From positions 1-64,000 of the forward strand of contig NOWV01000146.1 of NCBI GenBank assembly GCA_003344405.1: DNA of 64,000 nucleotides, read 5' to 3'. How positions within the stretch are numbered: position 1 is the first letter of the stretch; every line of letters begins with the position of its first letter. A program made the translations under genes and the position numbers. The notes under the pieces are model-generated. The model did not search any database, was not told the DNA's origin, and saw only the letters and a program-made list of their open reading frames with translations. Shown in pieces: positions 35,719 through 64,000 of the stretch. The stretch is from Trichoplax sp. H2. Taxonomy: Eukaryota.

Positions 35719-38700
35719 TCACATAGTTTTTGTATGGTAACATAACTTTGCGGGAAATACTAAAAGTGTGACACAGTATCAAGTTTAAAATATATAATTT
35801 CCATATTTCAGCAAGACTATTCAGTAGAAATGCGCTGATATATGGTAATAATAAGTAAAGAACCTTATTTTTCCAAGAAGTCCAGCTAGATAATACGGGT
35901 ACATCTAATTATGTCAATGCTAATAGAATATATAAATACCGTAATACTTACGCCTATTAAAGCTATGCGCTTGATTTTTCTTCAGATTATTACTTTTTTC
36001 CGATTCTGTTATGCGAAAGCAGCAAATGAAATTTCTCATAATTGTAACGGTATGATCAATGAATGTTTTAGTAAACATTGTGTATAGAATTGGATTGATA
36101 CATGAATTTAAAGGCAAAGATAAGACGGCAACAAATGTTAATAAATGAGTCTCCAACTCAGATATAACTATGCCACGAATCAATACAATGTATAATGGTA
36201 GCCAACATATAAGATCAGTAGCTACTATTGTAATCATTTTAGCAAGAACAATTTTTTCCAAAGTAGATATTTTCCGCCTGGCTGCTTTGCGTGATTTAGT
36301 TAAATCGATTATAATGGTAAAATACATAATGCTAATGATGATCCAGATCATGAATGTGACACCACAGTAAGTTAGTAACCATAATTGCAAGATTGGATTT
36401 TCGATATTACCAGGTAGGCAGACAGCATTAGTGGCATATAAACGATTGTATGGAGGCTGATTATTGCCATAAAGTAGCGGTATGCCCGCAAACATAACTG
36501 CAATTGACCAAAATATAACGAAAATGAATATAACCAGTCGCCTTGACAACCGATAGTTATGAAATGGGTAGATTAAGAATAGAAAACGGTCTACTGTGAT
36601 GATAAACATAATGAGTGTTGACATTAACGTCGAAACTGAGACAAGAAATGATGATGCTAAGCAAAATGGACTCCTTAACCAAACTTCGTGATATTGGGAA
36701 AAGTGTCCGGCAAAATAGACGTTAGCTGATGCGATAATAATTAAGTACAATCCCATCAATAAATCAGCAGCAGATAGATTAATAATTAGTGCTCTGACTA
36801 TAGTATCATCTTTCTTTTTAACACTTGCATGCCACATAATGGATAAAATATTTTCAATGATAGATAGAATACCAACAAGCCAAATAAAAATTCGTAATAT
36901 TTCATGTGATAAAATATCATTACACGTTGAAAGGCTGAATTGATTAGGTAACGGTCGGCATATACTAATAGTCTTTGGGGCATGGCAACATAGATATTCT
37001 CGAGATGAAAATCTAAAAATCAAAGTTACGCCTATTATATATAGAAACATCTTTGGCTATCTGCATTAAGAATTGCATTTCCTTCACATTACTAGGAAAA
37101 TTAATTTTCGAAGTTAATCAAATACTATATTTAAGCTTGTTTCTTAAAGTTTAAATGACTTAAGCATTGAAAGATGTTAAAAATGACGTCGATTGAAATA
37201 TATCGATAGCAATTAATATATAAGAGACATTTTTATCTCTTAAGTCGCACGATATTAAACTCATAATTAACCTATGATCCCAGAACTAAAGCAGGGATGG
37301 CTTAATTAAAGCATCCACTATACTGTACTGTAATGGAACTCTATTTTGTGCGGCAGGGGTTATTGACTGACCTATGATATTAATAATAATTGCTAAATAA
37401 GAATAGAATTTAGGTTACTTACTGTCACAAAACAGCTTTGCAACAAGATAACGCAATATACGATCAATAAGTCAATTCCTTGAACCATGTATCAAGGAAT
37501 GATATCTGCACTATCACAAACACTTTTTTGCTCAACTAGCAGACTATACAAAGACTTAGACGCCTCGTATTTTACGTTAAACACTAAGTTTGAGAATTCA
37601 CTTTATTACACGATATACTGCATTTATATACTATTCCTCAATAGCTCATGAGTCATAGTTAATACAATTAACATTGGAATCATTTACTGAATTAGATATT
37701 AATTTTAGCTACTGCTCCCTTAATGCAGACAACAGTATTTACGAACATAGACATGTAATGACTAATACAGAATAGTCAGATTACGATATGTCCTATCACG
37801 GAACATTTCCATGATAATTTGCAATCTACCATAAGTAAATTACAATCACAATGATTGGAACAGTAAGTAGATGATTTGTATTTCCTATTATAACTATTAA
37901 TTTCAGTATGTGTATAAGTGTCACTGTCATAAAAAGTCAGTGCTATATTAAAACACAGTATATCCAAATTAGAAGTTAACTAAATAAGGATAGTCTAACA
38001 GAATTATCCTAACATAGATATTTCTACTGTAATACAGTATATAACACTGTAACACTTACAGATCCGTTATTTCGCCAGCTCCAATTAATGAATATCTGGA
38101 GAATTGAATCAAAGGATTGTTTTTTATGTTTCTGTGAAAATGAAATTGCAAGGATACTGAGTCGATTAAAATCTCAACTAGCCACAAACTTAGTAGATTT
38201 GAATGTGTAATCATTTTTATGGTCAATAAAATAGCGATTTCTCCAGGTAATAAATACCAAGAAACTTCTCTATTCACTAGTTTTGAATTCTTAAAGTTTC
38301 GAGCAGTAATCGTAGGGTATTTAATCATTATTAGACTGGATAAATCGGAGATTTCGTCAGGCAATAAATACATTGCAATTTATTATCTACTATTCTTGAT
38401 TAAAATAATTTTCTTACAGTTGTCGTAATTTTTTAAACCCCGCTAAACAGTATGGTCCAAGCGTCACGATGTTATTATCGTCGACACTCCTAAACAGGTA
38501 TATTTTCGATTTCGTTAGCTAAATTTGTTTAATACCTTATGATCAATTTAATATTCTATAAAAATAAATGTTACATCAATGTAGAACTAAGCATATCTTT
38601 TAATAGGTAGATTTACACGTACAAAAGTTCCAAATTTGAAGATGCAGCGTCAGGAGTTGTACATATATCAGTTATATTATTTCTATTAAGAAGCCTATGT

Positions 38701-41700
38701 CAAAATCATTTTTAATAGAGCATTTATTAGCATAAAATATTCGAAATAAATTTAATCATTATGGTTAAACTAAAATAAAAGCATGGAGTTATGTTTCAAA
38801 TTATGGTCAAGAATCGAAAAACTTGATTTAGTGATTATAGATACACTTACAGCTTTTTCAAGTTTGATAATTTTATCAAGGAGAAATAATCAGTATTTTG
38901 AAGCTGATTTTTATCGAAATTCCTAAATAGAAAGGATTGCATCAAGAAAGCGATAGTAATTTAATGGCACACTTTGAATTCTATCGCTTGGCAAAAATTG
39001 GTCTTTATTACATCAAATATAACAATTAAATATTAAAATCTTATATAGTATACATATGTGATTTTATCTAATCTGTGACAGTATTCAAGACTGTTCTCTA
39101 TTTTATCTGAATTAAATAACATAAAAGGTCTAAAAGATTGCTATCAATTTATTTAAAAAATTATAAAGAAAGTATTAGAAGTACGCCTTACAATCGATTG
39201 ATATTGGCTAAAGGCGAAATACCTCCTAAGCCAATAGACTTGAGTTCACAATCTGATAATTCGCTTCAATATGAAAGTTATAAGAAGTTACGAATATTTA
39301 TGTATACGCTACCGCTTGTAGTACTCCTTCTAAAATAACTAGAAAAATCGATAAGTCAATATTTTAAAACTTACAGATGTCTAGTTTGGTATAATTTCCG
39401 TAGTATATTTTCCGAAAGTTGATCAAGGTCATTGCCACCTAAAATTCTGTTAACATTGGATGTAATTAATTTTATTAGTATTAGACCAATTTACCCCACT
39501 ACGTCATTTATCATTAATTGTTATATCATTTCTCAATAAAGAGTTTGAAAATACTCTACAGTTCAAAAAATTGTTTTCTTTCCGAAAATATCGGGACCAA
39601 ATCGACAGCTGATAGGTTGGAATAACTTAGACCCCTAAAGGTTGCGATTTAATTTTATGTATGTTAAGAAATCTGGTATGCATTAATTTTAATGTGTGCT
39701 ACTTATAATATGAAAAACATAAACGTACTATGGTTAAGATGTTTATAAATTATGAATGCATAATTTATAGTAAAGCAGTAAGTAATACTGAATTGTTAAT
39801 ATCCATAATAAAGAATTTACTTATAGGTTGTTAATAAGCCAGTGATTTGATATTGATTACTACAGAACGATGAATTGACTATTTCAATAATTAAATACAA
39901 TTTCCAATAAATTGGAAATTACCAGTAAGATAATTGTATAGGAACTCGTAGCAAAGGAATTGACGGATACTTTGTAATTTATAATTATATACTTACAGGC
40001 TTATCATATTGACTAGGTTTGTGATCAAACTCAGATTAACCCCTGATAAATTATTGCTATCTAGATATCTGTAACATAAAATAGACAAGAGTCACTTTTA
40101 TGTAAACCAGTAAGTGATTTTACATGATTTTCTATTCTTTAAATGCCGAGATGTGTAAGATAACGATGGCTTCTTGCGCATAATTTTAAAAAATTTAATA
40201 TGGTAGATATTATGTGATTCTACAGTAAAGGTATCACAAAACGTAACTTTATTTGTGAGCAACAGTTATACAAAGACCAACACAGGATACAGTAGTGTAT
40301 CAACATCATTTCCCACTTCTAAAAATGGAATAGTTTGCAGATTTCACTTTCGCTTATATGATTAAAGAGATCTTATACATACGCTGCTAAATATATAACT
40401 ACACGATAGAGTTTTTAATCCATTGATATTAATTAACTTATTTCCATTTTATTATTTGTATATCAATCGCCAATTTTTTATGGAAATAAAATTAAGGTTT
40501 GTTTCAATTGCTCTAGTTATTTTGAAAAGATTTACTTACAATTCTTGGATATGAGCAAGCTCTTTAAATAAAGCGGCATTGATTATGGACTTGTTAAATT
40601 GGCAGTGTTTCATTTTCCTACGAAGCGACAAATTATGAACTTGGCTATGTACATGATGTTTGATATTCATAGGCGATATCATTTTTGGCATAAAACTGGT
40701 TTATACTAAGCAGAAGCTAACACCAGAAATATTGTAAACGATGACTAGCAAGAAAAAAGATTATTACAATGTCCGAAGAGATCTGAAATGGCTAAAGAGA
40801 CGTAAATCAATAGATTGCAAGTTAGGATTATTATTCATGGATCTATAATCAGGATAAAAAACATTAAATAAATTCAGATATTTAAAACCTTCAGATTTTT
40901 ACTCATATAGTATAGTAACTGTGCACACTGCGATAAATCTTACAGTTCCTCGAGAAATGGAAGCTGCCTAAACGATTTTTCTTTCAACCGGGTTAAGTAA
41001 CGACCTCCAATCGCCCTTTGGTATTATATCATTTTATTATACATTCAAAGCATTAAAATTAAGTTTATCAACTTTCGATTTAGCTATAAGAACTCGATTA
41101 AAATATGTTTATTATATCAAAAAATATTCCTTACAATTTCTGCAGCCTAATTAATTTTACAAAAGCAAAATCAGGAATATCAGAGTATTTATTAGAAGCT
41201 AGATCCCTAGAGAAGGAGCAATTAATCGTTAAACTTATAGCCCTAAATATAACAGTATTATATCGTCTTTAAGTAATGGCTGATTGCAACAGAAAATATC
41301 TACATATCGTGAAAAATTCGAATAATTGCTTAAAATAACCACTAGTACTTTCATTTTTGTATCATTCAATCAATCAAACAATTCATCCAAATGCAAACAG
41401 CTGTTCGATTATAACCAGCTTAGATTAATGCAAATAACAAGAGCCTCAATTATAAGGTTAATGAACTAATTTATACAGGTTCTAATAAACTTACAATTCT
41501 TTTAAAATTATAGTATTTTCGAAAAGATCAACAGGAATTTTTTTCAGTTGATTCCCAACCAAAAACCTTCATTTTTCAAATTATTGTTGATTTGCCAACA
41601 TATGCAGATTAGTAGATTATATCGGTCGTAGTATCATCACCTGCTAGAATATCTATGAATCATGTGATCATACTTACAAGTGCGATATTGAAGAATTTAT

Positions 41701-42627
41701 ACCGAAAACTCTTTCATGAATACTATTTAGTTTGTTATTGCTTAAAGCCCTATTTGAATAGAAGTTCTCCGTTATCTTAGTCAGTATTTGATACCCGTGC
41801 GATAGCATTTTATATTAAGTTCTAAATTTGACAAATTTCCAATCAAAGCAAGAAATTTCAATTATATATTAGGAATAAATGATTGTTTTTACTGGTAATA
41901 CTAATGATTATAAATCTAACTTTGCTATTCATGTGATTCATTAGCCGACTACCCTATTTCTTACAAGTGCAGTGGTGCAAATGGCGAGAAAGTATTCAGC
42001 CCAAGATACTCTATAAAGTTGCTCGTCAACCTCCTAGACATAAAATTGTAAGTAAACAAAATCATGGACTGATATCGGTCAAGAGTTTCCTAAAAATCAC
42101 CTTCCATTAATCATATTGAATGATAAGGTTTATGATTTCATATGACTGAATGGATTTTGAAATTAAGCGAATACTTTTCAAATTCATTTAGGAAAAGTTT
42201 ACAGCTTAGCATTGCTGTAAAAATATCGGATCGTTAAAGAATGCCATTCTAGTCCAAGTCACGACACACTTTATTTCACAAATACAATTTTTCCTAAAAA
42301 TTACCCCTAGCAACTGCTAGCATATCAGTACTGTAGCATCTCTTCATCTTCAGACAAATAAAATACCTATTTATGCGTGATGCTTTAGAAATTTTATGAA
42401 ACTCACTATAGATAAAGTACAGAAATATTCTAAATAACTATCACGATTAATTTGGTGAAGCTAAACAATTAATTGCAATAAAAATGAGAAATTAAATTGA
42501 TAATTATATCCATAATTAGACTATGTTTCTCCTGAGTTCAAGTATCCTTACTTACACTATATTTAACGACCTCATGTCTTTGAAAGTTCCAGGCTCTAGA
42601 ATCGATATTTTGTTGAAAGATAACGAC
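35719..42627 (-). CDS. LRR-containing GPCR (short hinge, RXFP/GRL101-like): 16 LRR exons + hinge/7TM exon
   Basis: Sixteen open 69-78 bp phase-2 LRR exons from 42627-42556 (SLSFNKISILEPGTFKDMRSLNI) to 38131-38060. Hinge/7TM exon from 37012: YLCCHAP..CRP..STCNDIL, LRIFIW, NLSAAD, TVDRF, CLP, TDLICWLP, PLNSCINPILY. Probable last exon 35759-35719 (unspliced stop at 35920). Confidence 0.88.
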
Positions 42628-42699
42628 CTACGGATGAAAATATCTGTTAGGTTGTCTAATCTGCATCAGGGTACTACAAAGGTTTTGGCTAGTTTTGTA

Positions 42700-43190
42700 G
42701 CGACATTATAAGTTCTCTCGATCATGGAGATTTATCTCAGGGCAATTTGAAGACTTTTAAATGATAATTTATTAAATTAACATAAAAATAGTCTAAAATA
42801 AGTAACTACGGTTTTGTACACTTATTATAAAGTAATATTGGCACACCCAAGATATGATAAGTACCGCCATGTTTCCTTTTGTCAAAATAAGAAGCTGACA
42901 ATACATATATTTGTTGTGCCGAAGGACCTGCAATCTTACATATACATTGCACAGTGCACTAACTCACAGGTTTTTGACAAGTAAACATTCGGAAAATTGC
43001 TGACGACTAAGTTTTTCAATTCTATTCTTCTTCAAGGAGCTTTGATGAGTATATTATACAATAGCAATAATAATAGCTTAAATTTAATTAAAATGTTGAG
43101 AATATTCTCTAATATTGGTGAAATATTGTCATAATTTATTCCTTTCATAACAGAATTTCTTACAGTCTTTCCAAATGAGTACCATTGCAT
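42700..43190 (-). pseudogene. Decayed signal peptide / LRR N-cap of the downstream LRR-GPCR
   Basis: MQWYSFGKT (43190-43164, GTAAG donor) + LLLLLLYNILIKAP, then TGA at 43034. Downstream TCELVHC / QCIC Cys remnants lie in different frames; a stop-containing LRR-like remnant sits at ~42700-42770. Confidence 0.45.
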
Positions 43191-43599
43191 ATATGCTTCG
43201 GTAGAGTTGCTAATCGATTTGATGATAAATCTCTTTTCAGAAACAGAAGATATAATATAAAATTTTAACACTGGTAGTCATAAATTTGATATAATACTAT
43301 ATATAATAATTTAAGTTACTATCGCGGCTTTGTTGCAGCTATCATAATCACACTATTATACTACAGAAACATAATTTTGTAGTGTCACAAAACAACTTTC
43401 GTGATCATACCTAAACTAGTCTATCTACTCTTATAGTTCTCCAACTAACTCCGAAAATCCTCAGTGAGGGAAAACTAACTTATTCCTATACTATAGTAAT
43501 CGAGTAAAACGATAGGTTTAGGTTAATAAATATATTTATTACTAGCCCGTTTACGTTAGTACCAGTGTACTCTACGTTAGCCTCTGTGGAACTGAGATT

Positions 43600-44459
43600 A
43601 AAAATTAATAATCAAGCTTATATACAATTTCATATGTCACACCAATAATCCCGGTGCTAATCTTTCACGTTAAATTATATAATGTGCAATACAGGCTTAC
43701 TATAGACTATCGTGAATTGACTACTAGTTATATATGAGGAACATCAAGCTCCGTAACATGTAGTTTTATCTCGATTGAGCAGTTGAAGGTTTGCAAGCGT
43801 TGCATAATAAGAAATTAATAATTGCGTTTTTATAACACTGCATAAAGCAAACATCGATACAGGATTTATAACAGCCGGAACTATTTCCACCGTTCCATCA
43901 CAGCAATCATAATCACGTTATTATACAGTAGAGACGTAATTTTGTTACTTCAGTTCGATTGAGCTATTGAAGATTCGTGCACGCTACATAATAAGAAATC
44001 AATAATTGTGTTTTTGCATATACAACATAAAACAAATATCGACACAGAATTCTATATTCTGCTATCTGACGTTGCGATCATCACTATTTTAAGTATCAGT
44101 ATTATTAGTGCATATAGACGATAATGAAACTGTAAAAATACTGTATGATCTTTAGGAAGCTAGCGAAACCTGTTGTCATTAATTAGATCTACAATTCTTT
44201 ATTGGACACTGGGCAGCAAACTGCAATAACTACTTATGGAATCGTAATTTAGTTTGTTAAACCGAAATATAATCATTTCTTTGCGTCGCTATGCAAGTTA
44301 TCCTCCGTGATACCACTTGCAATTTTATTAAACCTAAGGAAATAATATATCAGATAATTTAACTAGGTAAAATTCGGTAGTTTGTAGAAGGTCTTCAAAG
44401 TTGTATTGAAACTATGGTATAAGGTGTCTTTTTACAAAATAGATGGTCGTCGGCATATA
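43600..44459 (-). pseudogene. Decayed hinge/7TM exon of the upstream LRR gene
   Basis: TACAG acceptor directly after the last LRR exon. Out-of-frame YADDHLFC resembles a hinge start; a TM3-like remnant NPVSMFALCSVIKTQLLISYYATLANLQLLN follows, with many stops and an internal duplication. Confidence 0.4.
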
Positions 44460-44594
44460 CTGTATATTACTGAGAATTCCAAAATCAATATTTTGTATAC
44501 TTGTATATAAAAAATATTTTTCTTTTTAGGAAGCGCTGCTTCGAACATTTTAAATTGAATTATAGAGTTAAAACGTAGGCTAATTAAAACGTAC

Positions 44595-47500
44595 ACTTCA
44601 AACAAAAATGGAAATTTGGAAAAGAATCCATCATCAATTCGTCCAATTCTGTTACCTAGTAGAAGGCTATTTCAAAAAGAACATAGATTGTATTTCGTAA
44701 GCAATGTACTTCGGAAAATAATCTACGAATCGACAAAAAGGAGTATGTAAACGATCTTCATTAACAAAGTTATTACCAACAGTTACATTATAAATATCTA
44801 ATTAACCTGAATAGAAAGGACTAGAATACCGTATAACTCTAAAATGAAACTTAGGCCATATACGAGAAATATAATAACATGTTTGCCATGCTAACAAGAA
44901 CTAATATCTCTTTAGATATTTTATTATTCAAATGTCCAGTTTATGATAAAAAAGGGCATCTACTAAACATCTACTAAATAATCGTACTGTAACTGTTACT
45001 ATTATGCAACATACGGTAGATGGCATTAACGAAAAGAAATATCTAGAAAACATGCGATCTATCTTGTACTAGAATTGGCAAAATTTTAATATAGAGTTAG
45101 TAATGTGTAAACTTATCAATCCGACTATATCCTTCATAAATATATCTAATCACATATTTATGTACGAAATCTAATTAAAATGAATGAAAATTGAATGGTT
45201 TATGAATTACTTACGAAGTAACAAATGGACGTGAACGAAATCAATTACTATTATTGAAAACATATTATCAAATACTCACAGGCGTTTTATCAATTTTTTT
45301 TTCGAATCTGAGTTTTTAAGTGAATGAATAAAGTTGTAGGAAAAATTTCTGAAATAAATAGATTTATATCAGTTAACCTTTAGTTGAAATTAAAAAATGG
45401 GCTTGAGCACGCATTGCAAACTAGAATATATTATGGGTAGTGAAAGTTATTGGCAATAAGACAATCTTAAGACTTGCTGTTCTAAGCTTTGTAACTTTAT
45501 GAGCAAAATTAAAAGCTGGCTGTTCTTTCGTCCTCATTTACCTTTAATGGACAAACATCTACTCTAGACTAAACTACGGAATTTAAATCCTTTTCAGATT
45601 ATAGCTGTTTTATCGAATAAGTGCTCCAAATATGTCCTTGATATGGAAGTGAAATACTTTGGTCACTAATTAATATCTTTCAATACGGTACAATAAAAGT
45701 GATTTCCAATTGTCTACAACTTATGAAACTGTTAATTCACTCGATCAAGTAGCTAAGAATAATGTGTTGAAGAATACTTTGCTGAACTTATATAGAACAT
45801 TTTCATGTTGGATTTCTGGGATATTAAGATTTTACGTGGAAAATGGGGTAAGAAAAAAATAATCTTGGCCACTATTACAGTTTACAAAATAAAGTTATAA
45901 AATATTAAAAATATCGGATTAGGAATAGTAATAGTCTTCATTTGCTCATTTGTACAGTATATAAACTTAGCCTTTACTTGATTGAACCAAATCTTACGCG
46001 CTAATTTATTATTCAATCCTTTTGCAATAGCAGCGTTTATTTTTCGACTAAACTATCATAACCGACTTCGAGGTAACAACTCTAAAAGTTAATTAGTTAT
46101 AATTATATTATAAGTTGATAAATGCTTACGTACATGAAGGAATTCGTTTTAAGAGAAGAAAACATTGCAAAGTCTAATTCGGAAATTCCGTTCAAAGAAA
46201 AATCCCTATTGCAAATTACTTTTAGTTACCATACTAATAAAAAATTTACAGAATTGTACTTTCAACTCTGCATTTCCAGTATTAGTTAATATCGAGAATT
46301 AGTTTCACAATCTACTAGTATTTCATAAATGTAGCTTGAAAGTTTCCTAGAAATATTTCTTTCTATAGCAATTACTTATTCATACAAAGTCAATATATAA
46401 ATAAGTGTCAGAAATATTATTAAATCCCAAGTTATATAGCATTATTAGATAATTTAACAGTCTCCTTACACATAGAAAATATCCGATAGTTTCCGGAATA
46501 AATCATTCGGTAACGAGGTTATTAAATTTTTCCCTAACTGCCTAAAAATTTAGGAGAATCAAAAGTTGTAATACAATCTAATTTTACCGTCAAAATTAAT
46601 TGCTTAATAAGAAGGCCTTTACCAACTCTAGTAATTTCCACAAGCAAAGATCTACAGTAATTACCTAATTCGAAACTTACTTATAGTTTAAATAATACCA
46701 TATACTCAAAAAATAATCACTTACAGTGCCTGAATTGTTTGCAGCTTCTGAAAGTGCTCTGGTTTAATTTCTCGGATACCACAATGTGAGCAAAGCCTAA
46801 ATTTAGTCATATTGTCATTTCATTAGAGAAGACTATTTCGAAAACACAGAAATATGGCCAGTGTTCATTAAATCACAACAGTACGGCAACATAAATGATG
46901 AAGAAATTTACTGATTCGTTGAAACAGTAATTTCTATCTATCGTTCCTTTTAACAATTTCTCGATTTTATTGAGAACCATTACGTAAAACGAAGATGTTA
47001 TAAATAGCTAAACTTATAAATTGGATATCATAAACCTAGTAGAATTCTTATAGTTATCCTTGCTCCTTGTTGATTTTAGGATACACTTAATAAATTACAG
47101 TGGTTCTGTTTTAAGAACTCAAATCAAATTTGCATAATCTTTGTATTTAACATCAAGAACTACCACAAAAATTTCCGCTGGTTTTAGTATACAACATGTA
47201 CTACTGTGAGAGCTATATAATTTGCAAACCATATGAGTAATGCCAATCTTTATAACGAAAATATCAAAGTAATGCTAATTATATAACTATTAATTATATC
47301 GTTAGTATCAAAATGAATATATTTATCTTACTATTAAAGCACAGTGATTATTTGTAATATTGTAGTAGGACTAGTTCTTCTCATTTTAATTAGCATTAAT
47401 AAAATTGCGTTAATATTTTCCTTATATAAGAATGTTAAACTTAATTTAACAGAATCAAAAGAAATCTACTTTGCTGTCATAAGATAATATACTAACAATC

Positions 47501-50500: not shown

Positions 50501-53500
50501 AAAACATCAAGAAATTTCATAAAACGGCAGCTCTAACTTTTATGCAATTAATTTTAATGTATATGAGACAGAGATTTACTTGAAATAGAGTCATAAGCTA
50601 ATTGATACTTACAAGCGCTGCAACTTCTTCAATGCTGATAAAGCTCTTTCATTGCTTTTTTCCTGACTTATCAATCTTAATTGTTAATTGAAGATTCATT
50701 ACGTGAGATTTTGTCTTGAAAATGATGCCTTTTCTAACATTTGCTTTGATAATCTGTCAAAACATTTTGTACTCACAGCACTTGAGCATTACTGAAGACT
50801 GTAAATGCATCTGGGGATATATCTGATATCGGATTATTTCTTAAATTTCTATTTGTTGTAGAAATTATGATTAAAAATTTTTCTTTTAATTCTTTGACAT
50901 AAATATTGTTCAAAACTACATCTTCGAAGTATTTCTAGCCAGCTTTTGCATAAAAGATGAAAAAGCTAACAGGTTCCGGCTCTCTAAATATTTTATTATC
51001 ACTAATTCTATAAACATGAGCCATCGTTAGCTACGACAGATCTTCACCAAAAACGTATAATGTAATTAAACCTCTGACCCTGCATACTTATTTGGCAGCC
51101 AATAACCTGTAGAGTGCTAATAATAGATTACTTACCGTACTAAACTGACGATTTTACTTTATATTTTTCTACAAAATACTGATATGAACATATAATATAT
51201 TTAATTCTTACACAAAATATAATCTAGGAAGCGGTTTGACGGAAGTAAATGCATCCAAATGAATGGTAAAAATTTGATTTCCCTCCATATTTCTGAAACA
51301 TATTACACAACATTTTTGATATATGAAACCATGGTTTATATCAAAGCAGGATATAAGCAGTTATTTATAACATGTTTAAAAATATTCTTTTATTAGAAAT
51401 GCTTCCTTTAAGTTGATGCTATTGAGGACTTACAATGTTCTCAATGCATACATATTTGATAGTGATGTTACATTTAGGAATGAAATCATGTTTTTTTGTA
51501 GTAATCTGTTAAAGTGCAAAATAGTAAAGGCAAATTTTATTATAAATTAACGAATTTTTAATTAATGGAATTGTAGCAAATTTTTGGCCTAATTAGACAA
51601 TAATCTCAGGATAAAGGTACGGAAACTTACAAAGTATTCAAACTACTTAAACATTCTCTTAAGGCTCCAAAATTAGCATGCTTGATATAATTTTCATTAA
51701 TGGATCTGTAAAAGTACAAAATCAAATTTTACATGGTAAGCCTTATAATTATGGTTTACAGTTACATACATATAACCTACATCATACGGTATAGATAAGA
51801 ATTAAGATGTTTATAAAAACATTTAAGTTCAATTTTTATTCTTAGGCCTATAATAAAGGTTTAATTATTAATTATTTATGCCTATCTATAGTTGAGATGG
51901 TAGTAGCAGTTATCACAAAATCTTATATCAAGAGTATAGCATTATTGCTAAGTTAATGCTTTGAGAAAGACAAATAGATTAAACTATGGTCATACTTTAT
52001 ATCATTTACAAAAATATGAACACAGACATCAAGACTCTAATTGCACCCTTTAGATCTATATTAACAAACTCACAGGATTTTTAGCCGCCTTGAACCAAAG
52101 CAGATGTTTTCATTGATAGATTTAAAGCGATTATTATCTAAGTTCCTAATATGCAGCAAATATATCTTAGCGAAGAATTTTTCAGGTATAAAAATCTATA
52201 TTCCTAAAGCGTTATTAGGTGAAAGCATGCTGGTACTCTTTGAAAATCTTACAAATGTTGCAGAGAAATAAGGCCTTCAAGTGCGCTTTCTGGTACTTGC
52301 TCTATCATATTATCTTTTAAGTTCCTAATAGGACAAGGTAATGGAGAAAGCTTTTTAAATTCATAAATTGTATTTAAGCGAAATAATTTTCATTTTATTG
52401 AATCAATTAACAAGGTGAACTATATAATGCTGCCACGGACTACTCTCCAGATAAAAAAATAAAAAGTATTCTGCTCTTCTAGATTGCTACAGTCAATTAC
52501 TATTTTAGCTTAGGTCTGGAACTACCCTCTAGACTGCAATCACAACGGTAAACTTCACAACTTCGAGCTACTTCTACTTTATTCCAACTAATACAGCCAA
52601 CGCTATATTCTCGTGAAAGCTACAAAAATCAATTGCTAAGGAGCAATATTTGCAATTACGAGTCAATCATAAAGCTTAGTCGACCAAACCTACATAGGAA
52701 GAAATCTACTAAACAAATACTTAATCTATACTACTATTGAAGGTGCATTTGCACCTTGACAAATGCATATTTATTTAGGAATCAATAAATGATATTAGAC
52801 GATTCTAACCAGCTATGACCCAAGTATTATCAGAATATAAGAAGAATGTATAAGAATAACGTTATCTATAATTCTTTACCGTTTATTTACGTTTACCATT
52901 ATTAAATTACAAAATGGCTAAACAATATTTCTATCCGAAAAGTTGATTGTGCTCGTAAATCTTGTAATCTTGAAAAATTCGTTCTTACATTATTTTTAAA
53001 GAATACAAGCCATAAAATGTCATATTGCTAATGTCCTTGATTTTGTTCTTGGATAAATTCCTGAAATGCATCAAAACGAAATGATATTATTATTCTCTGT
53101 AAACTTTTCATTAGTTGGAGAAAATACATGTGCTAGTGTAATACCCATAATAGATTCCTAAGGATATAAATTTTAAAATAAATAAATTAATAATATACGG
53201 TGGTAACCATGATCAGCTTATTAATTAATGCTTAAGATCTACGCTAATTTGGGAATTGATTCGCACAGCATCATAGCATTTAAGCTACAAAATAACATCT
53301 ACTTTAAATGGTATGACATATTAATAATTTATAAGTTTATTACATCTTCCTACGCACTAATTTCGTCGTAAGAGCAGGTGTCGTACTCGATATTACGGTA
53401 ATTTCAGTAAATAATATTGCTGACTGAGAAATTCTTACAGCGTAATACGGAATTTTGCTAGTTTGGGTATACTTATGATGTTTATTCATTCCGCTGTATA

Positions 53501-56500
53501 ATGCAAGTGTATTTGTCGAAAACATATCTTACTATGCTTTAAATTGTTTTAATTTTATGACATTAGAAAATTCATCGCACCTTTCCTGAATCTAGATTAG
53601 TAGTAAAATAAAGGTATTTGACAATATTACTTACAAATCGGTTAGTGTACCAAGTTCTTTGAACGCTTGATCACATATTGTGTAAATGTGACTGTTTTGA
53701 AGCGAACTGTAAATTTAAAATGATGAAACAAAAATCTAAATTTACTACTTTATTGCAAAATCTACAAATCAGATTTCTGGAATTACTTATATCATTATTT
53801 GATACCGTAAAAGAAATTAAGAATTATACGATCATCAAAATCATTTTACCTTGTAAACAAATTTTATACTTAGAAATTAATGTTTAATAACTTTTAGCAT
53901 TAGAGCTATCGATAAATTTCTAATATGGATATTTTTCTTTGTTTATAATGATAGATAAACGATTAAATATTATAAAAACATCCGTTATTTCGATATATCT
54001 GCATTAGTAGTATTGTAGCTATTAGCTTACAGTTTTTCAAGCCTTGGTAAAAGCTTAATAATCCCACAATCCAGATGGTGAATATATCCCATTGTCAATT
54101 CGCTTGAAAAATTAATAAAATTTACTATACTTGCATTGATAATTGAACTTATCTAACAGGTAGTTGCTGTATTATAATCAAGACATTATCACTACGAATA
54201 CAACATAACTGCCACTTTTAGTTTCTTATCTGTTTTAAAGGCTACTTTTTTATTCGCCTTAGTTTGTATTTTAACTAAGTAAAAATTGAAGGCCCTTAAT
54301 CCTAGTTCACAATTCGACTAAGATGTACTCCAGAGTAAGTCAAACGCTTAATGCTATTATTACATACATCTACGTAATACTGGAATATATTTCACATTAG
54401 TAGTTACGTAATAGATGATGAAAATATATTATCGTCTCTTACAAAATACAGTATGTAAAGGCATAGAATTATTTTTTTCTAATATATGCCATTGAATTTC
54501 AATAGACGGCATAAAATCTATCAAAGGTTCAAATACAGTGAAGCAGCCTAAAAGAATCGATACTAGACCATCAATGACAACTATAGAATTCTAAAGGCTT
54601 AAGTTTTAAATCAAGCTTTAATAATTAAAAGTCATACTTACAGAATTGTCAGATTAGCCATATTCTGGAATGTAGTAAAGGCCAAACCTCTATGATTCGT
54701 ACTAGAGAATAGTCTAAAAGAATTTACCATTGAACTTAAGATGGCATAATTGGATAATTAACATAATAGTTTGCTCCGTATCTTTTCATTTCCTAAGACA
54801 GCAACTGTCATATCATCACTTGATCGATATTGTAATACGGTCTAAAATACTCTTATTCACATACGCGATACTAAGGTGAGGCATTCCCAGACCAGCCTTT
54901 TGTGGTATTTCTTGGATTAAATTACGAGACATATCTCTGCATTATAATTAAGAATTAGTGATTATAGCATTCAATAAAAGTGTACCTTAATAATGCAAGA
55001 TTTAACCAGGTTATTTCCATGCTGTATTCTCAAGCGATTGTAAATAATTGTCATAACGAAATTAGTCAGATATTAACTATTGTACGCAATAAAAATTTCG
55101 TCTACAACTACTGCTACAAAATTCCAATATTACAATTCATTTTGTGTAAATCATCCACTTTTCTTTTAAGTTCTAATCTCGAAAATATGTAGCGACAATA
55201 TTATAAAGTAGGATACGATACTATTTTACATTCGGAAACAGATTCTTTTATTTGATGAAGAAACTGTAGACTGGTACTGCTCTAAATTTTAAATAACGGC
55301 GGAGATTTTTATGTAAATGATAGAAAGCTAGTTGTAAACTTAGAATTTAACGATAAAGAAAGCATTTTTACAAATAAATACGATTATATGGTACAAGGTT
55401 ACATCTACAGTAATGCACAATAATTTAAATTATTACATTGGTATCGTCATATAGCAAATGCAATATTATCTTCAACCTACAGACTTTTCAGGTTATTCAA
55501 GTTTAGGAACGTATCTACGTCCAAGAATCGTATTAGTGTTTCACTTACTTCCCTAATTAGAATGTCAATAAATTGATATAAAATTTCTAAGTGCTTAAAT
55601 TTACAGTTAGTTTAATCGTCTTTAAGAATAAACTATAAAATAAAGCTGTTATGCAGTTATCTTAATAACACATGAGTAAATACATAGTCATAATAAATTT
55701 AAAACCTAATGTATGCATCAAGTGTCTATGAAAAGTCTGTATCCAGATGCCTTTTAGCATCACGTCCGCTTTAGGACCCAAAATACTGACTGTCATGTAA
55801 CATCCGTGAATAAAAAAGTCTATCGACTCAGCCAACGTTTCTATACAAGCTATAAAATCAAGTCATATTGAAGTACAAACTATTTAGTGATATAGCTGTA
55901 AATATCAATAATAGTTACCTAAATGACACTATAAAACTCTTCAATTACCTTTGTAATATTGCTGATAGATAGATAAAATAAATTAATAATTTTTAGTAAT
56001 TTTTAAATTAATTAAGGAAAAGCTCTTGTGATCTTGTCATATTTGCTATATATAGAGACTGTTACGTTCGCATAGTACCAAAATAGTGGATATTACTTCG
56101 GTTCAGTTAAAATCAACTAAGCCCAATATACTTGTAATACACCATTGTGGATTATTATTATCGGTACATTACGATATTAAACTAGTATTTCTTCTACACA
56201 TGTGTAGATTTACTGATTAGCAGAAATCAGTCCCTTAGTTACTTAGTTCTTGGATAAAGAGTTGCCTGTTCAGGATTATCGTACTATTATTGTAAGTAAT
56301 ATACGGACTACGCGCTTGTAGTTTATTAAGAAATTAATGACTGATAAAGTAGCCAAAGAGTGCATATACATCACTAAATTTAGGCAGAGTGCCTCTAGCG
56401 ATCAGTAAATAACGCAATTAGATGAGGTTTTAGGCCAAGATATTTTCGAATATTTTGATCGATCAATTCTTAGATGTAATAAGCCCAACTCCCTTACAAA

Positions 56501-59500
56501 CTTGTAATAAAACCAATGTTATGATTAAAATATCAAAATTGTTTCCGTTAAGAAGTTTAAATAAATACGTTAATTCGAGTGATTTGGAGAATTAAAAATT
56601 AAATCATAAAAGAAATGTTTTTATATAATGTTTCAGATGCTACTTATAGCAGAAATCAATTTCTTACAATATTTCCAATTTTTGCAAAGGGTCGAACACA
56701 TGCTTGGAAAATTCAGTAATAGGATTTTTTGACAACTTCCTGTAAATTAAAGAAACTTATGAGACCTCTAAATTTTACCTGATAGTATTATACCGTGATA
56801 AATGACTTATAGCACTACGTTCTACTGTGATTTATTTTTATTATTCATATCTACAAATAATACGATTTATAGTTTGAATCTTTTAAAATATGATTTTTAG
56901 GAATAGCTGAAGCGTTTACATGATTCTAAGGTTTCTTAATCCGTTGAAAGCCTTTTCATGAATGGATAGAATGTGAGATTGTTCAATTTGTCTAATTGAG
57001 AAGTATAGCTACAATATTAAGTCATTAGAACGCTACTACCCAACTTTATCATCAATAACTTACAAAACTTGTAAAGATTTCAAATTTACGAAGGCATGTT
57101 TGTGAATTTTTGTTATATAATTCATTCCTATATTACTATCAGGACAAATATATGTTTTATGTCTTATCATACTTTTAAATCAAAAATCTTCCACGAAATT
57201 AATACCCAAAAAGACTTACAGCAAGCGAAGATTTGGTAAATTCTTGAGATATTCTTGGGATATAGCTTCGCTATTAAGTAGATTTTGGTACGCATTGCTA
57301 CATTAATAACATAAGACAACCTCAAAATTTTTTTGATAATACTGTAAATGGACTGTGAAATTAAAAATTAAAATACTCTACAATTGATATAGTTACCGTA
57401 TTAATGTATGATTGCACGGCAACGAATATTATATTCCATCTACTATATTCAAAAACGTTACATATTCTAGCTATACGCTTATTTTAAGAAATTTTATTTT
57501 TCCTTCGTGAATACTTCTTTAATTTCGCCTTATATCTTATTTTGCAATGTATTCTCAAGCAGATTTTGTATTTATGTGACTAGCATGTGCTAATTTAATA
57601 CTAACATGGTGTCATTTTGTAACCGTTATTAATTCAAGTTATATCGCAAATTTACAATTCTTACGGCTAAGCGATATCTATACAGAAATTACTATATTTC
57701 AGGAGCCACTTGATAATTTATCTAGAAATGAAATAGCATAAATCATAAATATTGTTTTAAAACTTACAGTTCATATATCCAAAGTTGAGGAATGGAGGTA
57801 TCTATCGGAAATTCCTGCATGTAACTGCGGGGCACCATACTTGATGATAAAAATTGAATTTAGTTCGTGAATTATGAGTATAACTTATAGCTATTTTCTT
57901 TTAGTGTATAACTCATATATTTTTCGCTATTTGCACCAAATAGACATCTGTATCAGTGTCATGGCACTAGTCTAGCTATAAGAATCCAAAATGCGTTTAA
58001 AAGTCAATTTCTAACTATACTCATGGGAATAGAGTAGCCAACTTGTAGACAGTTTTAGGTATGCTAAGGCTGCCTATTAAAAATTAGTAACTATGTTACT
58101 ATCCCTAAGACAACAAACGAACTACAGTAGCCGTAATATTGTATAACCCTTCACAAATATAGTATAGATAATAATTTTTATATAAGCTAACTATTTAAAA
58201 TGCGGTGTGGCACAGATCATCTGTTTATTTTTTTCCAATTGATGATAATAAATACTGTACATCACCCATAGAATTAAAATAAAAAGAAACTATAACGCTT
58301 TTTCATGTAGAAGCTTATCGAAGTCTTAAGAAACAAAAAAAGGAGTCTATCACCTGAATCTTGCAGATTCAAATGAATACTGCAATAGATAAAGGTAAAT
58401 TATGCCCATCGGCTTGAGACATAACTTAATATTGGGATTGTAGACTACAGTATTAGCCATACTTAGGATATCAACGTAAATAAAGTAGTCGTTTCTATAT
58501 TGGATCAATGACTGTCCATTGTCAAATGTTGTTAGTAAATCTTAACACGTGTAAAATGCGGTAGAATATTGCTGTACTGATTGTAGCTACGAACGTTACG
58601 AAAAGTATACTAAAATAAGTCAATTAACTGTTAGAAATTCCTAGTTGTTGTAATTCCATGTTAAATGTAGAGTAGCACTGTAATACGTAGAAAACTCGCT
58701 GCATGCGTGTAAGCAAGTAACAACTGAAATATGCCTTGTGCATACTGTATAGCCCTCAACGATTCATTTCTTAATTTCTATTGCCAACGCAACGAGACTC
58801 ATAAACCGTCAGCGAAGAGTAATCAAAGTTACTTCTCAATTATTTACGAGATGAGATGTTGATTATTGGCCATTTTTGGCATTGTGTTCTACAGACTGTA
58901 AACTTCAATGTATGAAAATACTCTAATAGGCTGCTAGATTACCGATGACCATTATCTGCTGCACAGTAATATGTTACTAATTATATTCCGCAAAATTAAA
59001 ATTGAAAATACACGTAGAATGTCTCTAAGATGATTGTAACTACAGATATTATAAAAAAAATTGAATACTTTCAAAGCTTACACTGACTGATAGGGTATAA
59101 TCCATTTCTTAGGTAACTGAATCTTAGAACGAGAAGTACAGACTAAGCTTGTATTTGAACATGAACATTTCTTAATACATGGAAGTTGATCTAAAATATA
59201 GATGAAAGCAATATACAACTCAGAGCCATTATACTTTAGTGTTCTTTTCTATGAACTAAAGTAAATTTCGTAACAAAATCAAAATTTCCAACCTTAAAAT
59301 AAAATATTTGATAATACTACAGATTAAAAAATATATTTAATATTAATTAAAAGGCAAAGCGCTAATTCTATTTATATAACATAGTCTAGAAAATTATGAG
59401 GTAATATAATTAATCCATCATTCCTTAAGAGAGCGAAACTAAGTAAATGTGAGAATATAATAAACATACGGCAGCGTTCTTTTTTCATTGAGGTATTAGA

Positions 59501-59747
59501 AATTTTCCATAAAGGACATAAAGAAGGTTTACAAACTAGAAATAAAAGTGGCATCATGATTGCTACTTTCTAATGATAGCACACAATCTATTGCTTGGAT
59601 ATGCGGTTAAATCTTCACATTATTCGTATACTTACTCGAAGCGAAATCGATTTTTTTATGCTTCTTACAAGAATCTTGGGTGCAATTATTTACGCTATTT
59701 GGAATCACTGCAGTATCCAGAGGTACTAAAGCAGAAAATACTAGCAT
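44595..59747 (-). CDS. Large LRR ectodomain: signal-like N-terminus, Cys-rich LRRNT cap and ~30 LRR exons
   Basis: Exon 59747?-59636 (hydrophobic segment + NNCTQDSC); 59535-59470 (CKPSLC..C); 59190-59082 (PCIKKCSCSNTSLVC). Then about 30 open phase-2 exons of 63-81 bp from 57839-57768 to 44666-44595, e.g. NLSKNKIKDISNMTFYGLYSLKI and QLGSNAISFIETHSFERMPTLQT. Start codon uncertain; the frame is open and hydrophobic upstream of 59747. Confidence 0.8.
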
Positions 59748-62353: not shown

Positions 62354-62679
62354 TGTCACAAACAGCTCGCGATGGAGATACCTTGGATCACTAAAACTCC
62401 TTAAAAGATAAAACTATAACAGCTAAATATGTCTACAACAACAGACTAGGAGTAGGCTAGGTTTAGGTTTAATAGAATTTATTTAATTTAGAAGTCTTGA
62501 CATCCAAGGCTACTTCATCTACACACGCATACTACGCGCTAATTATCAAATGATCAGTTAATGAGGGCACCGGGCTTCATATACCCTCTCTCGGCTGCAC
62601 AGCTTACTGTAGATAAATAATTCTAAAACTAATATAGATTTGCATGGCAGACTGTCTACGGAGTCTGTACTCCGTCATA
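62354..62679 (-). mobile_element. Solo LTR-like element, copy 2 (326 bp, internally deleted)
   Basis: Plus strand TGTCAC...TCCGTCATA flanked by CTAAT / CTAAC (5-bp target-site duplication, one mismatch). Shares several blocks with 21743-22343 (gtcttg.catccaag.ctact, gggctt.atataccct, tgcacagctta, gactgtcta, acggagtct.tactccgtca). Confidence 0.65.
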
Positions 62680-64000
62680 CTAACTTATGGTAGAATGTAA
62701 ATGAGCTTGAAAGTATTCCGTGTACGAACATATTGCAATCTGATTATCTTGCATTAGTCACTAGATGTCTATGCTCATAAATACTGTCGCCTTCATCAGC
62801 TAGCAGTAGATAAAATTAATCTCTGATTCATTTCAAGGCTTCAAAGTTAAATGTACTAACTAGCACGCATGAATTATTACAAGAAAAAGTATAAATATGG
62901 TATACTGTGTCATAAAGCGAGTTCTTCAAAATTTGGTTTTCACTTCAAATTCAAGGCGCCTAAGTTTTGGTATTGCTTCCTAATAGAGAAAATGTGTTCC
63001 TTATAGCGTAGAAATTGTTCATGATGCATGATGCAGGGGCTCAACTTATTGATCGGAAGTTACTTTAACATGTTGCAAACCTATGTTATAACACTGCAAT
63101 ATAAGTGTAATGAATACTGTGCTTGGATAGCATGTTCATGACTTATGAAATAAATGGTAAAAATAAAATTTATTGCATTAATGGCTAGTAACGCAAATTA
63201 TAAAATATAGAGCAGTTAAAATTGTTTTCGTAAAGGTAAAGTGTATTTTAATGGATTAGTCGCAATATTGGAGTACAGAATGTAACAGGACTTCTCACAC
63301 AGGATTTTTCGCCAATATCTGCGTTAATAAAGTACAGTAACAAATAAATATAATATATCAATAAGTATAAACTATTCAAACCTATGAAATTGGCCTAGTT
63401 ATACAAAACACCAATACCTAGCTAATTAATATGGCAAACAGACTTGGCTATAGACTGTATTCTGAAATATCACATAATGATATTCCTGTGAGATTGTAAG
63501 AAGTCTGCTTCTTATTTCTTTAAAACCGCCAATAATAATCGCAAAAGATTCGGATAGTAAAACAGAGTGTATGACACGTTTTTGTAAACAAAGTTTTCAA
63601 TACGAGTACTGCAGATTAAATAAATAATGAAAGATGAAGATATCGATATTGGAAGATGGTGGTTCATATTTGAGAAAATAATTGTAATAAACTAATGATC
63701 ACAAGAATAATGAGGAGCAGGGAAGGATCGACAGCACCATCCTTAAATACATATAGGAAACTAACTCTTACTAATCAAGATTTTCACTTAGTGAAGAAAA
63801 TAATACTTCTAGCTTGTATGTATATGGTATCTCCAGATACTTATGCTAAGAAGTTTCGTACAGTAGATAACTCAAAGAGAAGAAAACAGCCATACCTCGA
63901 ATAGGGCTGCTGATAAATGTACACCTGTACAGTATACATCATTTCATTAAACCAGCCATCATCTAGAATGACTTCATTAATAAGCACAGCCACTATTTTC

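Follow-up and report, generated by a model that had tools for sequence, protein, structure and literature searches.

The minus strand of the analysed window (64,000 nucleotides of Trichoplax sp. H2, contig NOWV01000146.1) carries what is probably a single gene for a placozoan-specific LRR-GPCR of the LGR type, rather than two broken genes that have become fused. The gene would span ∼27.7 kb (59747-32056) and is predicted to encode ∼1.8-1.9 thousand residues. From the N-terminus, the product would begin with a signal-like segment and a Cys-rich cap, each encoded by its own exon, and continue as an unbroken ectodomain array of 47 LRRs (up to 50), one per exon. A single exon would supply both the 7TM and, ahead of it, a short hinge with four Cys, and a short linker would lead to an intracellular kinase-like domain of ∼230 aa without the HRD and DFG aspartates. 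The original prediction ended the locus at 35719, which is too high because coding exons extend to 32056.

Exon 1 (59636..59747) starts at the first ATG of its open frame and encodes 37 aa with a short, weakly hydrophobic, signal-like start, a putative signal peptide. It ends in a phase-1 donor, A|GTAAGT, at 59636. Exon 2 (59082..59190), which follows a ttttag acceptor and ends in a phase-2 GTAAGC donor, encodes a Cys-rich segment resembling an N-terminal cap (QLPCIKKCSCSNTSLVCTSRSKIQLP...) and is in frame with both exon 1 and the first LRR exon. The signal-like segment predicted for this end is thus present; the accompanying LRRNT label rests on the pattern C-x3-C-x-C-x6-C, as a Pfam scan of the exon 2 open frame gave no family. 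A regular-expression scan of the whole window found no LDLa motif, as had been anticipated.

Single-repeat exons of 69-84 nt, all phase 2-2, form the body of the gene. LRR exons 1-29 run from 57297 to 44595, so that 29 of the roughly 30 upstream repeats originally proposed are seen as open exons. They lie at 57297-57220, 57135-57064, 56991-56920, 56739-56668, 55552-55481, 54936-54865, 54713-54642, 54102-54031, 53706-53635, 53060-52989, 52324-52253, 52145-52074, 51705-51631, 51505-51434, 51292-51212, 50848-50777, 50063-49986, 49791-49720, 49524-49453, 48847-48776, 48648-48577, 48441-48370, 48207-48136, 47753-47670, 46796-46725, 46541-46470, 46205-46134, 45348-45280, and 44666-44595. The 16 downstream exons, numbered 32-47 here, run from 42627 to 38060 and form the stop-free chain that had been described: 42627-42556, 42033-41965, 41749-41678, 41566-41495, 41206-41135, 41015-40944, 40842-40768, 40617-40540, 40068-39997, 39634-39560, 39446-39375, 39263-39192, 38922-38851, 38694-38623, 38489-38418, and 38131-38060. 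Exon 47 aligns with the last LRR of paralogue P0003, the one directly before the hinge. A Trichoplax sp. H2 protein matches the LRR exons of the locus at 100% identity, and a scorer of AG|..|GT open-frame LRRs returned 59 rows on the minus strand versus 10 on the plus strand.

An in-silico chain from the ATG at 59747 to the donor at 35952 joins 53 exons into 1634 aa with no stops. The 47 LRR exons chained together are likewise free of stops, and the codons at their junctions all specify L, V, I, M, or A. The shared phase-2 ends would restore the conserved Leu codon at every splice. Since all of these exons are phase 2-2, the open frame alone is no proof that any given one is used. The count rises from 47 to 50 if three irregular exons are taken from public models. 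One of them (50613..50675, minus strand, 63 nt, phase 2-2, donor GTAAGT) occurs in P0197 and P0198, the other two (50374-50309 and 47565-47497) are of the same type, and the frame is open whether they are included or left out. Irregular repeats that come after an "NP" repeat follow repeats 4, 16, 24, and 38, and none is located at the 44.6-42.6 kb junction, where repeats 29-32 are regular xLxxNxIxxL units.

What looks like a break at 44.6-42.6 kb is best explained by an ordinary repeat-bearing intron with two further LRR exons after it. The intron (43233..44594) measures 1362 nt, compared with up to 1115, 873, and 785 nt for other introns of the gene. It contains direct repeats (43771-43870 with 43955-44056, 79%; 43336-43380 with 43901-43945, 82%) as well as a segment, 43382-43737, that is multi-copy in genomic runs. 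LRR exon 30 (43164..43232, 69 nt, DLSSNRLATLPKHICNGTHLER) and LRR exon 31 (42968..43039, 72 nt, SLKKNRIEKLSRQQFSECLLVKN) are both on the minus strand and phase 2-2. An LRR HMM built without these two exons gave exon 31 a score of 10.8 bits, above all 218 plus-strand candidates used as the null, and this exon also aligns with paralogue LRRs. Exon 30 scored 6.8 bits, and the top three null candidates scored 7.8, 7.0, and 5.8; outside the gene, the best minus-strand candidate reached 5.6 bits with the same leave-out HMM.

Splice-site scores are available for both exons. The exon 30 donor (PWM score 11.8) outscores the donors of 38 of the 45 training exons; that of exon 31 scores 10.9 (training median 10.2; 95th percentile of background GT sites 6.9). 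Both exons have AAG acceptors with a modest score of 3.5, versus a training median of 5.1; for exon 30 this value exceeds 12 of the 45 training exons. The GC fractions of exons 30 and 31 (0.348 and 0.333) are near the exon mean of 0.336 and are therefore exon-like, the intron mean being 0.274. Exon 30 is a probable genuine LRR exon, and we infer that both exons are used.

The hinge and 7TM occupy a single minus-strand exon (35952..37012), which encodes a short Cys hinge (REYLCC..C..C; ∼30 residues, four Cys) and a whole rhodopsin-type 7TM. This 7TM had been predicted to be intact, and against Pfam 7tm_1 it reaches 99 bits (cut-off 30.5). It is 99% identical to TRIADDRAFT_18229. The exon has its acceptor at 37012 and a phase-1 donor, C|GTAAGT, at 35952/35951; its open frame continues to a stop at 35922-35920, where TRIADDRAFT_18229 ends. 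By sequence comparison, the 7TM is nearest to relaxin-receptor-type LGRs. The nearest solved relative of hinge plus 7TM is RXFP1 (7tmw_R, E 8.7e-41, query residues 10-334), which bears out the short RXFP-like hinge first proposed, and LHCGR, TSHR, and FSHR come next. The intron before this exon (37013..38059) carries a dispersed repeat at 37437-38054 with a further, inverted copy at 62099-63079. In four runs of short genomic-type contigs, which showed no splice joints, the 37234-37900 bin had a word depth of 2339-4026, against 0-6 for every bin that lay outside the two repeat stretches.

Three further minus-strand exons detected by tblastn (33546-33314, 33116-32918, and 32316-32059, with a stop at 32058-32056) join in frame to encode 230 aa. 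They match the C-termini of P0013, P0004, and P0003 (E 4.6e-17, 6e-14, and 1e-3), and a fold comparison of this tail returned IRAK4 chains among others. In the alignment, the domain has neither the HRD nor the DFG aspartate, and it is probably catalytically dead. Six Trichoplax models (P0003, P0004, P0013, P0039, P0044, and P0045) and one from a coral (P0005) have the same domain joined to a 7TM. For the linker that should connect the 7TM exon with the C-terminal exons, five open candidates have a consensus-like donor, and three of the five restore phase 0. The tentative choice is 34124..34197 (minus strand, 74 nt, phase 1 to 0, ...ILILPSSVTSSISK). It would set the CC motif 47 residues from the C-terminal domain, as in paralogue P0013, and is the only candidate that resembles the P0003 linker (...ALSSNPDLSK). 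GPCR-kinase fusions (GPCR-TKL/K and GPCR-TK) have been described from choanoflagellates, sponges, oomycetes, and amoebozoans (eLife 2025, PMC12716839). As at the locus, a single polypeptide contains a 7TM and, C-terminal to it, a domain with the protein kinase fold; the locus differs in its LGR-type 7TM, its LRR ectodomain, and its short tail without HRD and DFG aspartates.

Public annotation is best read as having broken one long LGR gene into pieces. The upstream LRRs appear in LRR-only models (P0197 of H2, named "IGF-binding protein complex acid labile subunit, partial", and P0198 of H1, which is TRIADDRAFT_51261), the 7TM is annotated apart as partial protein P0012, and no model spanning the 44.6-42.6 kb junction was found among the public models. 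This separation would suit two transcription units, an upstream secreted LRR-only protein and a downstream LGR with 16-18 LRRs whose unrecognised first exon lies in or near the junction interval. Read-through past exon 29, which adds 54 residues before a stop, would also be compatible with such an arrangement. However, the models are clearly incomplete fragments: They begin mid-array at an internal ATG (55020), have no cap, omit seven high-scoring LRR exons (17-25 bits), and have their ends inside an intron, and P0197 uses 16 of the 29 upstream LRR exons, as judged from its own model letters and tblastn rows. Moreover, tblastn found no relative of a start, signal, or Cys-cap upstream of exons 30, 31, and 32, so the LRR solenoid of a separate downstream receptor would be uncapped, contrary to the usual build of LRR domains. 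Exon 29 also carries a working-looking donor (8.6, exceeding 15 of 45 training exons). Two separate units are therefore unlikely.

The original prediction invoked two once-complete tandem LGR genes with complementary lesions, the upstream one having lost its 7TM and the downstream one its signal and N-cap, now read through by a splice from 44595 to 42627. That splice is indeed in frame, and a single receptor can be read in frame across both LRR blocks and the 7TM; the fusion of two genes is the part of the proposal that fails. The supposed ruined hinge and 7TM at 44459-43600 gave scores no better than controls: tblastn of four 7TM proteins against 42700-44600 reached at best 22.7 bits (19.6-25.8 bits in 20 shuffles; 18.5-25.8 bits in nine other stretches of the window), and a hinge+7TM HMM reached at best -0.3 (-4.8 to 1.8 in 10 controls; 625.8 on the real 7TM exon). 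By both methods, no 7TM homology emerges in 43600-44459. The sole motif-level resemblance to the hinge in the gap is RDYDCC (43917-43900), which recalls REYLCC, but its codons sit in a 45-nt local repeat whose second copy (43336-43380) reads CDYDSC. For the supposed stop-interrupted signal/N-cap at 43190-42700, no tblastn match exceeded 18.9 bits (16.5-20.8 bits in eight controls) when the N-terminal exons of the locus itself and the N-termini of five paralogues served as queries, and two regular, open LRR exons occupy the region instead. No pair of LRR exons exceeds 57% DNA identity, so no unit duplicated recently is present. An old event may have left relics that decayed past detection, but a fusion of this kind is quite improbable.

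Slightly less probable still is that the array is partly unused, with some exons being skipped relics and the mature receptor having far fewer than 47 LRRs, or that the gene is a decaying member of a family with dozens of paralogues (many matches at 50-62% identity); phase 2-2 exons can be skipped with the frame kept and some repeats are irregular, but all 47 small exons hold open frames and GT donors in 30% GC DNA, where stops are frequent and unused exons would be expected to decay, and the 7TM and C-terminal exons are intact.

Repeat-rich LGRs of Trichoplax are of an already known kind. The portions consulted of the review by Hauser et al. (2022; PMC9545775) count 46 LGRs in T. adhaerens, of which 41 are placozoan-specific with unusually many LRRs, 34 in Tadh-LGR-15, and give 7-9 LRRs for type A and C LGRs, a range that the "about 10" originally quoted for RXFP fits. 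These placozoan-specific receptors share with the locus the organism group, a rhodopsin-type 7TM behind a hinge of its own, and a very long LRR ectodomain. The claim that the ectodomain is far longer than in familiar LGRs thus stands against human LGRs, but not against published placozoan arrays, although the 47-50 LRRs modeled here exceed the 34 quoted. The kinase-like tail is found in the locus and its nearest paralogues, and the word "kinase" does not occur in the review. The paralogues with 50-62% identity in the 7TM come from T. adhaerens and Trichoplax sp. H2, and NCBI calls those of H2 "GRL101-like". LRR-HMM matches extend across residues 10-675 of P0058 (7TM at 702) and 1-767 of the partial P0070 (7TM at 874), both from H2, which sets a precedent for a long array. 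The locus resembles the type C LGRs RXFP1/2 in that RXFP1 is its nearest solved hinge and 7TM, and differs from them in having no LDLa by regular-expression scan, ∼47 LRRs, and an extra intracellular domain.

Long extracellular LRR arrays form the ligand-binding part of Toll-like receptors, Slit, and plant LRR receptor kinases, and in the plant proteins the array is combined with a kinase inside the cell that belongs to the IRAK/Pelle group. None of these proteins has a 7TM; they possess a single transmembrane helix or lack one altogether, and in Slit the LRRs are split into capped blocks. Slit proteins matched the locus solely as generic LRR matches. For the single long receptor proposed here, the LRR solenoid would bind an extracellular ligand, and the hinge and 7TM would pass the signal to G proteins and perhaps also to partners docked on the pseudokinase-like tail.

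The window is AT-rich (28%–37% GC in 2-kb steps). A simple scorer for open frames that are flanked by AG and GT and carry an LRR pattern returned 59 rows on the minus strand versus 10 on the plus strand. When these rows are combined with weaker candidates that have good splice sites, 47 exons of 69–84 nt can be chained from 57297 to 38060 on the minus strand, where all features of the gene described here lie. The original prediction held that two tandem LRR-GPCR genes with complementary lesions are joined at this locus by a read-through splice from 44595 to 42627. Its exon counts are accurate (29 above 44595 and 16 from 42627 down), and the LRR exons of both blocks are phase 2-2 as proposed, as is the entire chain of 47, which contains no stop. 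The split codons specify L, V, I, M, or A each time, a conserved hydrophobic position of the repeat. The maximum DNA identity between any two exons is 0.569 and similarity along the array is not periodic, indicating that the LRR block contains no recently duplicated unit.

The array can be extended at both ends. Exon 1 begins with the ATG at 59747 and ends at a phase-1 GTAAGT donor, and a Cys-rich exon (59190–59082) is in frame with both exon 1 and the first LRR exon. The last LRR exon (38131–38060) joins an acceptor at 37012, immediately ahead of REYLCC...C...C and TM1, and the same join is made in the paralog P0003. From ATG 59747 to a donor at 35952, 53 exons encode 1634 amino acids with no stops; three of the 53 are irregular exons that public models use. 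Dropping these three, or LRR exons 30 and 31, also keeps the frame open, and therefore an open frame is no proof that a given exon is used. The LRR exons and the 7TM lie in frame on one strand, and they are predicted to form one polypeptide with the LRRs N-terminal to the 7TM.

The hinge and 7TM occupy a single open frame (35920–37056), whose translation, P0001, matches Pfam 7tm_1 over residues 69–325 with 99 bits (cut-off 30.5). The downstream 7TM is rhodopsin-type and, as originally described, intact. The partial Trichoplax adhaerens protein TRIADDRAFT_18229 (P0012, 286 amino acids), a public 7TM-only fragment, shares 99% identity with it, and many other Trichoplax proteins share 50%–62%. 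The nearest solved relative of the hinge and 7TM in a PDB sequence search is RXFP1 (E 8.7e-41). LHCGR (2.1e-34), TSHR (2.3e-30), and FSHR (1.6e-29) come after it, and the first protein outside the LGRs is somatostatin receptor 2 (5e-12). The Cys-rich hinge, REYLCCHAPKTISICRPLPNQFSLSTC, lies directly before TM1, and its CC..C..C pattern is common to the window gene, the Trichoplax proteins P0003, P0004, and P0013, and the coral protein P0005. Type C LGRs (the RXFP or GRL101 type) carry one or more N-terminal LDLa modules. In contrast, a motif scan with three regular-expression patterns found no LDLa-type Cys/acidic motif in any frame of the window, in agreement with the original observation. 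Metagenome contigs were also scanned with the 7TM protein; 329 patterns were matched, and none encodes a relative.

Several other features of the window were recorded. A second single-exon GPCR-like frame (16555–17730, minus strand; P0002, 392 amino acids) scores 58.9 bits with Pfam 7tm_1; no solved relative reaches E ≤ 0.001, and upstream of the frame no clear series of LRR exons was seen. The minus strand has two more long open frames, at 26820–27239 (140 amino acids) and 9867–10133 (89 amino acids). Short repeated open frames within 684–6488 belong to a tandem array with a 261-bp unit (22.6 copies, 86% matches). A dispersed repeat is present in the intron that precedes the 7TM exon (37437–38054) and, inverted, upstream of the gene (62099–63079), with 74%–77% identity. 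Word depth in the bin 37234–37900 is 2339–4026 in four low-coverage genomic-type runs, indicating that this repeat is a high-copy element of the genome.

The fusion model depends on two lesions between the LRR blocks. The first, a ruined hinge and 7TM at 44459–43600, finds no support. When four 7TM proteins were compared with 42700–44600 by tblastn, the best match was 22.7 bits, versus 19.6–25.8 bits for twenty shuffles and 18.5–25.8 bits for nine other stretches of the window. Likewise, a hinge and 7TM profile reached at best −0.3 in 43233–44594, versus −4.8 to 1.8 in ten controls and 625.8 for the real exon. The sole suggestive feature in 44459–43600 is RDYDCC (43917–43900), which recalls the hinge motif. 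Its codons sit in a 45-nt repeat with an 82% identical copy at 43336–43380, where the same frame reads CDYDSC. A second local repeat pairs 43771–43870 with 43955–44056 (79%), and 43382–43737 has a word depth of 39–80 in four genomic-type runs, versus 0–6 in all bins outside the two repeat stretches. Because of these local repeats and the multicopy stretch, 43233–44594 looks like a repeat-bearing intron. At 1362 nt (44594–43233) it is the largest of the array; others measure 1115, 873, and 785 nt.

The second lesion, a stop-interrupted signal and N-cap at 43190–42700, was not recovered either. Queries consisting of the N-terminal exons of the gene itself and five paralog N termini gave at best 18.9 bits by tblastn, versus 16.5–20.8 bits in controls. 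A Pfam scan of open frames in the gap for an N-cap found nothing, and it is uninformative because the same scan missed the true cap exon. What this interval does contain is two open, LRR-like, phase 2-2 segments: exon 30 (43232–43164, DLSSNRLATLPKHICNGTHLER) and exon 31 (43039–42968, SLKKNRIEKLSRQQFSECLLVKN). An LRR profile built without them scores 6.8 bits for exon 30 and 10.8 bits for exon 31. Among 218 plus-strand candidates from the whole window, the top scores are 7.8, 7.0, and 5.8 bits, and minus-strand candidates outside the gene reach at most 5.6 bits. By rough arithmetic, the null rate at 6.8 bits (2 of 218 in 64 kb) predicts ∼0.06 such segments in the 2-kb gap, where two are seen. 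With a matrix derived from the other 45 exons, the donors of exons 30 and 31 score 11.8 and 10.9; the training median is 10.2, and the 95th percentile for 1128 background GT sites lies at 6.9. Both have an AAG acceptor with a score of 3.5, between the median for background (1.8) and that for training exons (5.1), and their GC content is exon-like. Exon 31 is well supported and exon 30 is probable.

With these two exons counted in, the LRR array is continuous. Repeats 29–32 are regular, and by our reading of the chain, irregular repeats that lack the Asn and come after an "NP" repeat follow repeats 4, 16, 24, and 38. Consequently, any borders between sub-blocks do not fall at the supposed junction. 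The anatomy originally described for the locus is largely real, whereas the two lesions on which the fusion model depends find no support. Neither a remnant of a 7TM or hinge between the blocks (tblastn, HMM) nor one of a signal or N-cap before the downstream block (tblastn) rises above controls. By the refuting condition given with the original prediction, absence of 7TM homology in 43600–44459, the two-gene fusion is not upheld. We conclude that the locus is probably one long placozoan-specific LGR gene, in which 47–50 LRRs precede an RXFP-like 7TM and a kinase-like tail follows it. On this best reading, long LRR arrays are already known from its family, and public annotation has broken the gene into pieces.

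The public record indeed describes the locus in pieces. P0012 covers the 7TM only, and two LRR-only models, P0197 (Trichoplax sp. H2) and P0198 (T. adhaerens TRIADDRAFT_51261), extend over the 54936–46725 portion of the upstream block. P0197 matches LRR exons of the window with 100% identity, and P0198 with slightly less. Together with the 7TM identities, these matches identify the window as nuclear DNA of a placozoan. Both models begin in an intron of the array, with an ATG (54985–55020, MEITWLNLALLR), and both skip seven canonical, high-scoring LRR exons. The end of P0197 reads into an intron (46588–46650), and P0198 adds one piece (46081–46040). These structures look like annotation artifacts of genes with tiny exons. 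Alignment of stop-to-stop frames with the LRR exons gave 30 matches; P0197 and P0198, both mapped, are the only ones from Trichoplax, and the other 28, which were not mapped, carry the names of other organisms or no name and are generic LRR proteins, among them Slit and TLRs. No public model spanning the junction was found by word matching among proteins of 189–2000 residues. Four genomic-type runs (0.09–0.14 of words) yielded 158- to 243-nt contigs that are colinear with exon plus intron and have no GT..AG joints, and such contigs speak neither for nor against splicing or expression.

Two separate transcription units would agree with these divided models; we regard this explanation as unlikely. 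An old fusion whose relics have been erased is very improbable. Least probable, by a little, is partial disuse of the array.

Long LRR arrays have precedents. A 2022 review (PMC9545775) counts 46 LGRs in T. adhaerens, 41 of them placozoan-specific with a hinge of their own, and ascribes to the latter an "unusually high number" of LRRs, with 34 in one protein. The traits of the window gene fit this description, and its closest 7TM relatives are Trichoplax proteins. Two Trichoplax sp. H2 proteins, P0058 and P0070, have LRR matches over ∼670 and ∼770 residues before their 7TMs. Several LGR relatives have a 7TM that starts beyond residue 1400, and three of these were scanned (P0093, P0086, and P0074). 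Their length comes from LDLa, CUB, lectin, and EGF modules rather than from LRRs, and they were rejected as giant-LRR precedents.

The lower boundary first assigned to the gene must be moved, as coding exons continue down to 32056. The C termini of P0013, P0004, and P0003 match the minus strand of the window by tblastn (E 4.6e-17, 6e-14, and 1e-3) at 33546–33331, 33115–32918, and 32307–32158. With splice sites, three exons can be drawn (33546–33314, 33116–32918, and 32316–32059) that encode 230 amino acids in frame and end at a stop (32058–32056). At 35952, 30 nt ahead of the stop of the public model, the 7TM exon offers a phase-1 donor that fits the consensus (C|GTAAGT). Because the exon at 33546 is phase 0, one or more linker exons must join it to the 7TM exon. 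No single linker in 35950–33547 was found by a strict splice-score search, and a looser search gave five candidates. We tentatively assign the linker to 34197–34124, which restores the frame, gives the same 47-residue spacing as in P0013, and ends like the linker of P0003.

Several comparisons suggest that this C-terminal domain may have a kinase fold. With Pfam PK_Tyr_Ser-Thr (cut-off 23.1 bits), P0004 falls short at 20.9 bits and coral P0005 passes at 28.6 bits. The AlphaFold model of P0039, another Trichoplax protein with this domain, is of low confidence (mean pLDDT 52.9; ∼70–80 over residues 260–360). The Foldseek PDB matches listed for it are all kinase domains (E 2e-5 to 1.3e-4), including CaMKII, Bud32, IRAK4, JAK2/3, MYT1, and BRAF, with low query-normalized TM-scores of 0.25–0.34 for this low-confidence model. 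A language-model feature search with residues 160–407 returned kinase clusters at 0.95–0.96. In an alignment of P0003, P0004, P0005, P0039, P0044, P0045, and the exons of the window (the P0013 model ends before the motifs), HRD is replaced by HG[S/N/F] or HNN and DFG by LG[K/S/G]F, or by LSEF in P0004. The kinase positions were assigned by our reading of the alignment rather than by structural superposition. Because both aspartates are replaced, we infer that the domain is probably a pseudokinase.

Besides P0003, P0004, P0005, P0013, P0039, P0044, and P0045, the tail was seen in P0147 and others. Among 227 proteins, a tail profile matches 10 further LGR-like proteins, behind their 7TMs, with sources that include Nematostella (E 8.4e-33), three hemichordates, two echinoderms, an abalone (Haliotis), and a nemertean. 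Judged by these HMM matches, the tail seems not to be limited to placozoans, and GRL101-like receptors from sea anemone, coral, hemichordates, echinoderms, a mollusc, and a nemertean would carry the same module behind their 7TMs. A limited full-text search found no description of a kinase-like tail on LGRs, and within the literature searched, animal GPCR–kinase fusions are reported only from sponges.

Had two damaged genes been fused here, the locus would have offered an elegant example of gene rescue, but the evidence does not back this. The split annotation produces at least one LRR-only "secreted" protein and a 7TM-only fragment, and such errors affect how many LGRs and how many "secreted LRR proteins" are counted in placozoans. 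An ectodomain of 47–50 repeats would top the known LGR range, and such a long solenoid raises the question of its arrangement and its ligand in an animal without nerves. If confirmed, the kinase-like tail is of interest because it seems common to GRL101-like receptors of several phyla. It is possible, if somewhat doubtful, that the gene is the most complete example yet of an undescribed receptor architecture, in which a giant solenoid of 47–50 LRRs, longer than any reported for an LGR, precedes an LGR-type 7TM and a conserved intracellular pseudokinase. By analogy, the proposed LRR–7TM–pseudokinase order may echo the LRR plus IRAK/Pelle-kinase logic found in innate immune receptors of plants and animals. 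If this architecture is real, an ancient metazoan branch of LGRs would signal via a kinase-fold scaffold, in addition to or instead of G proteins.
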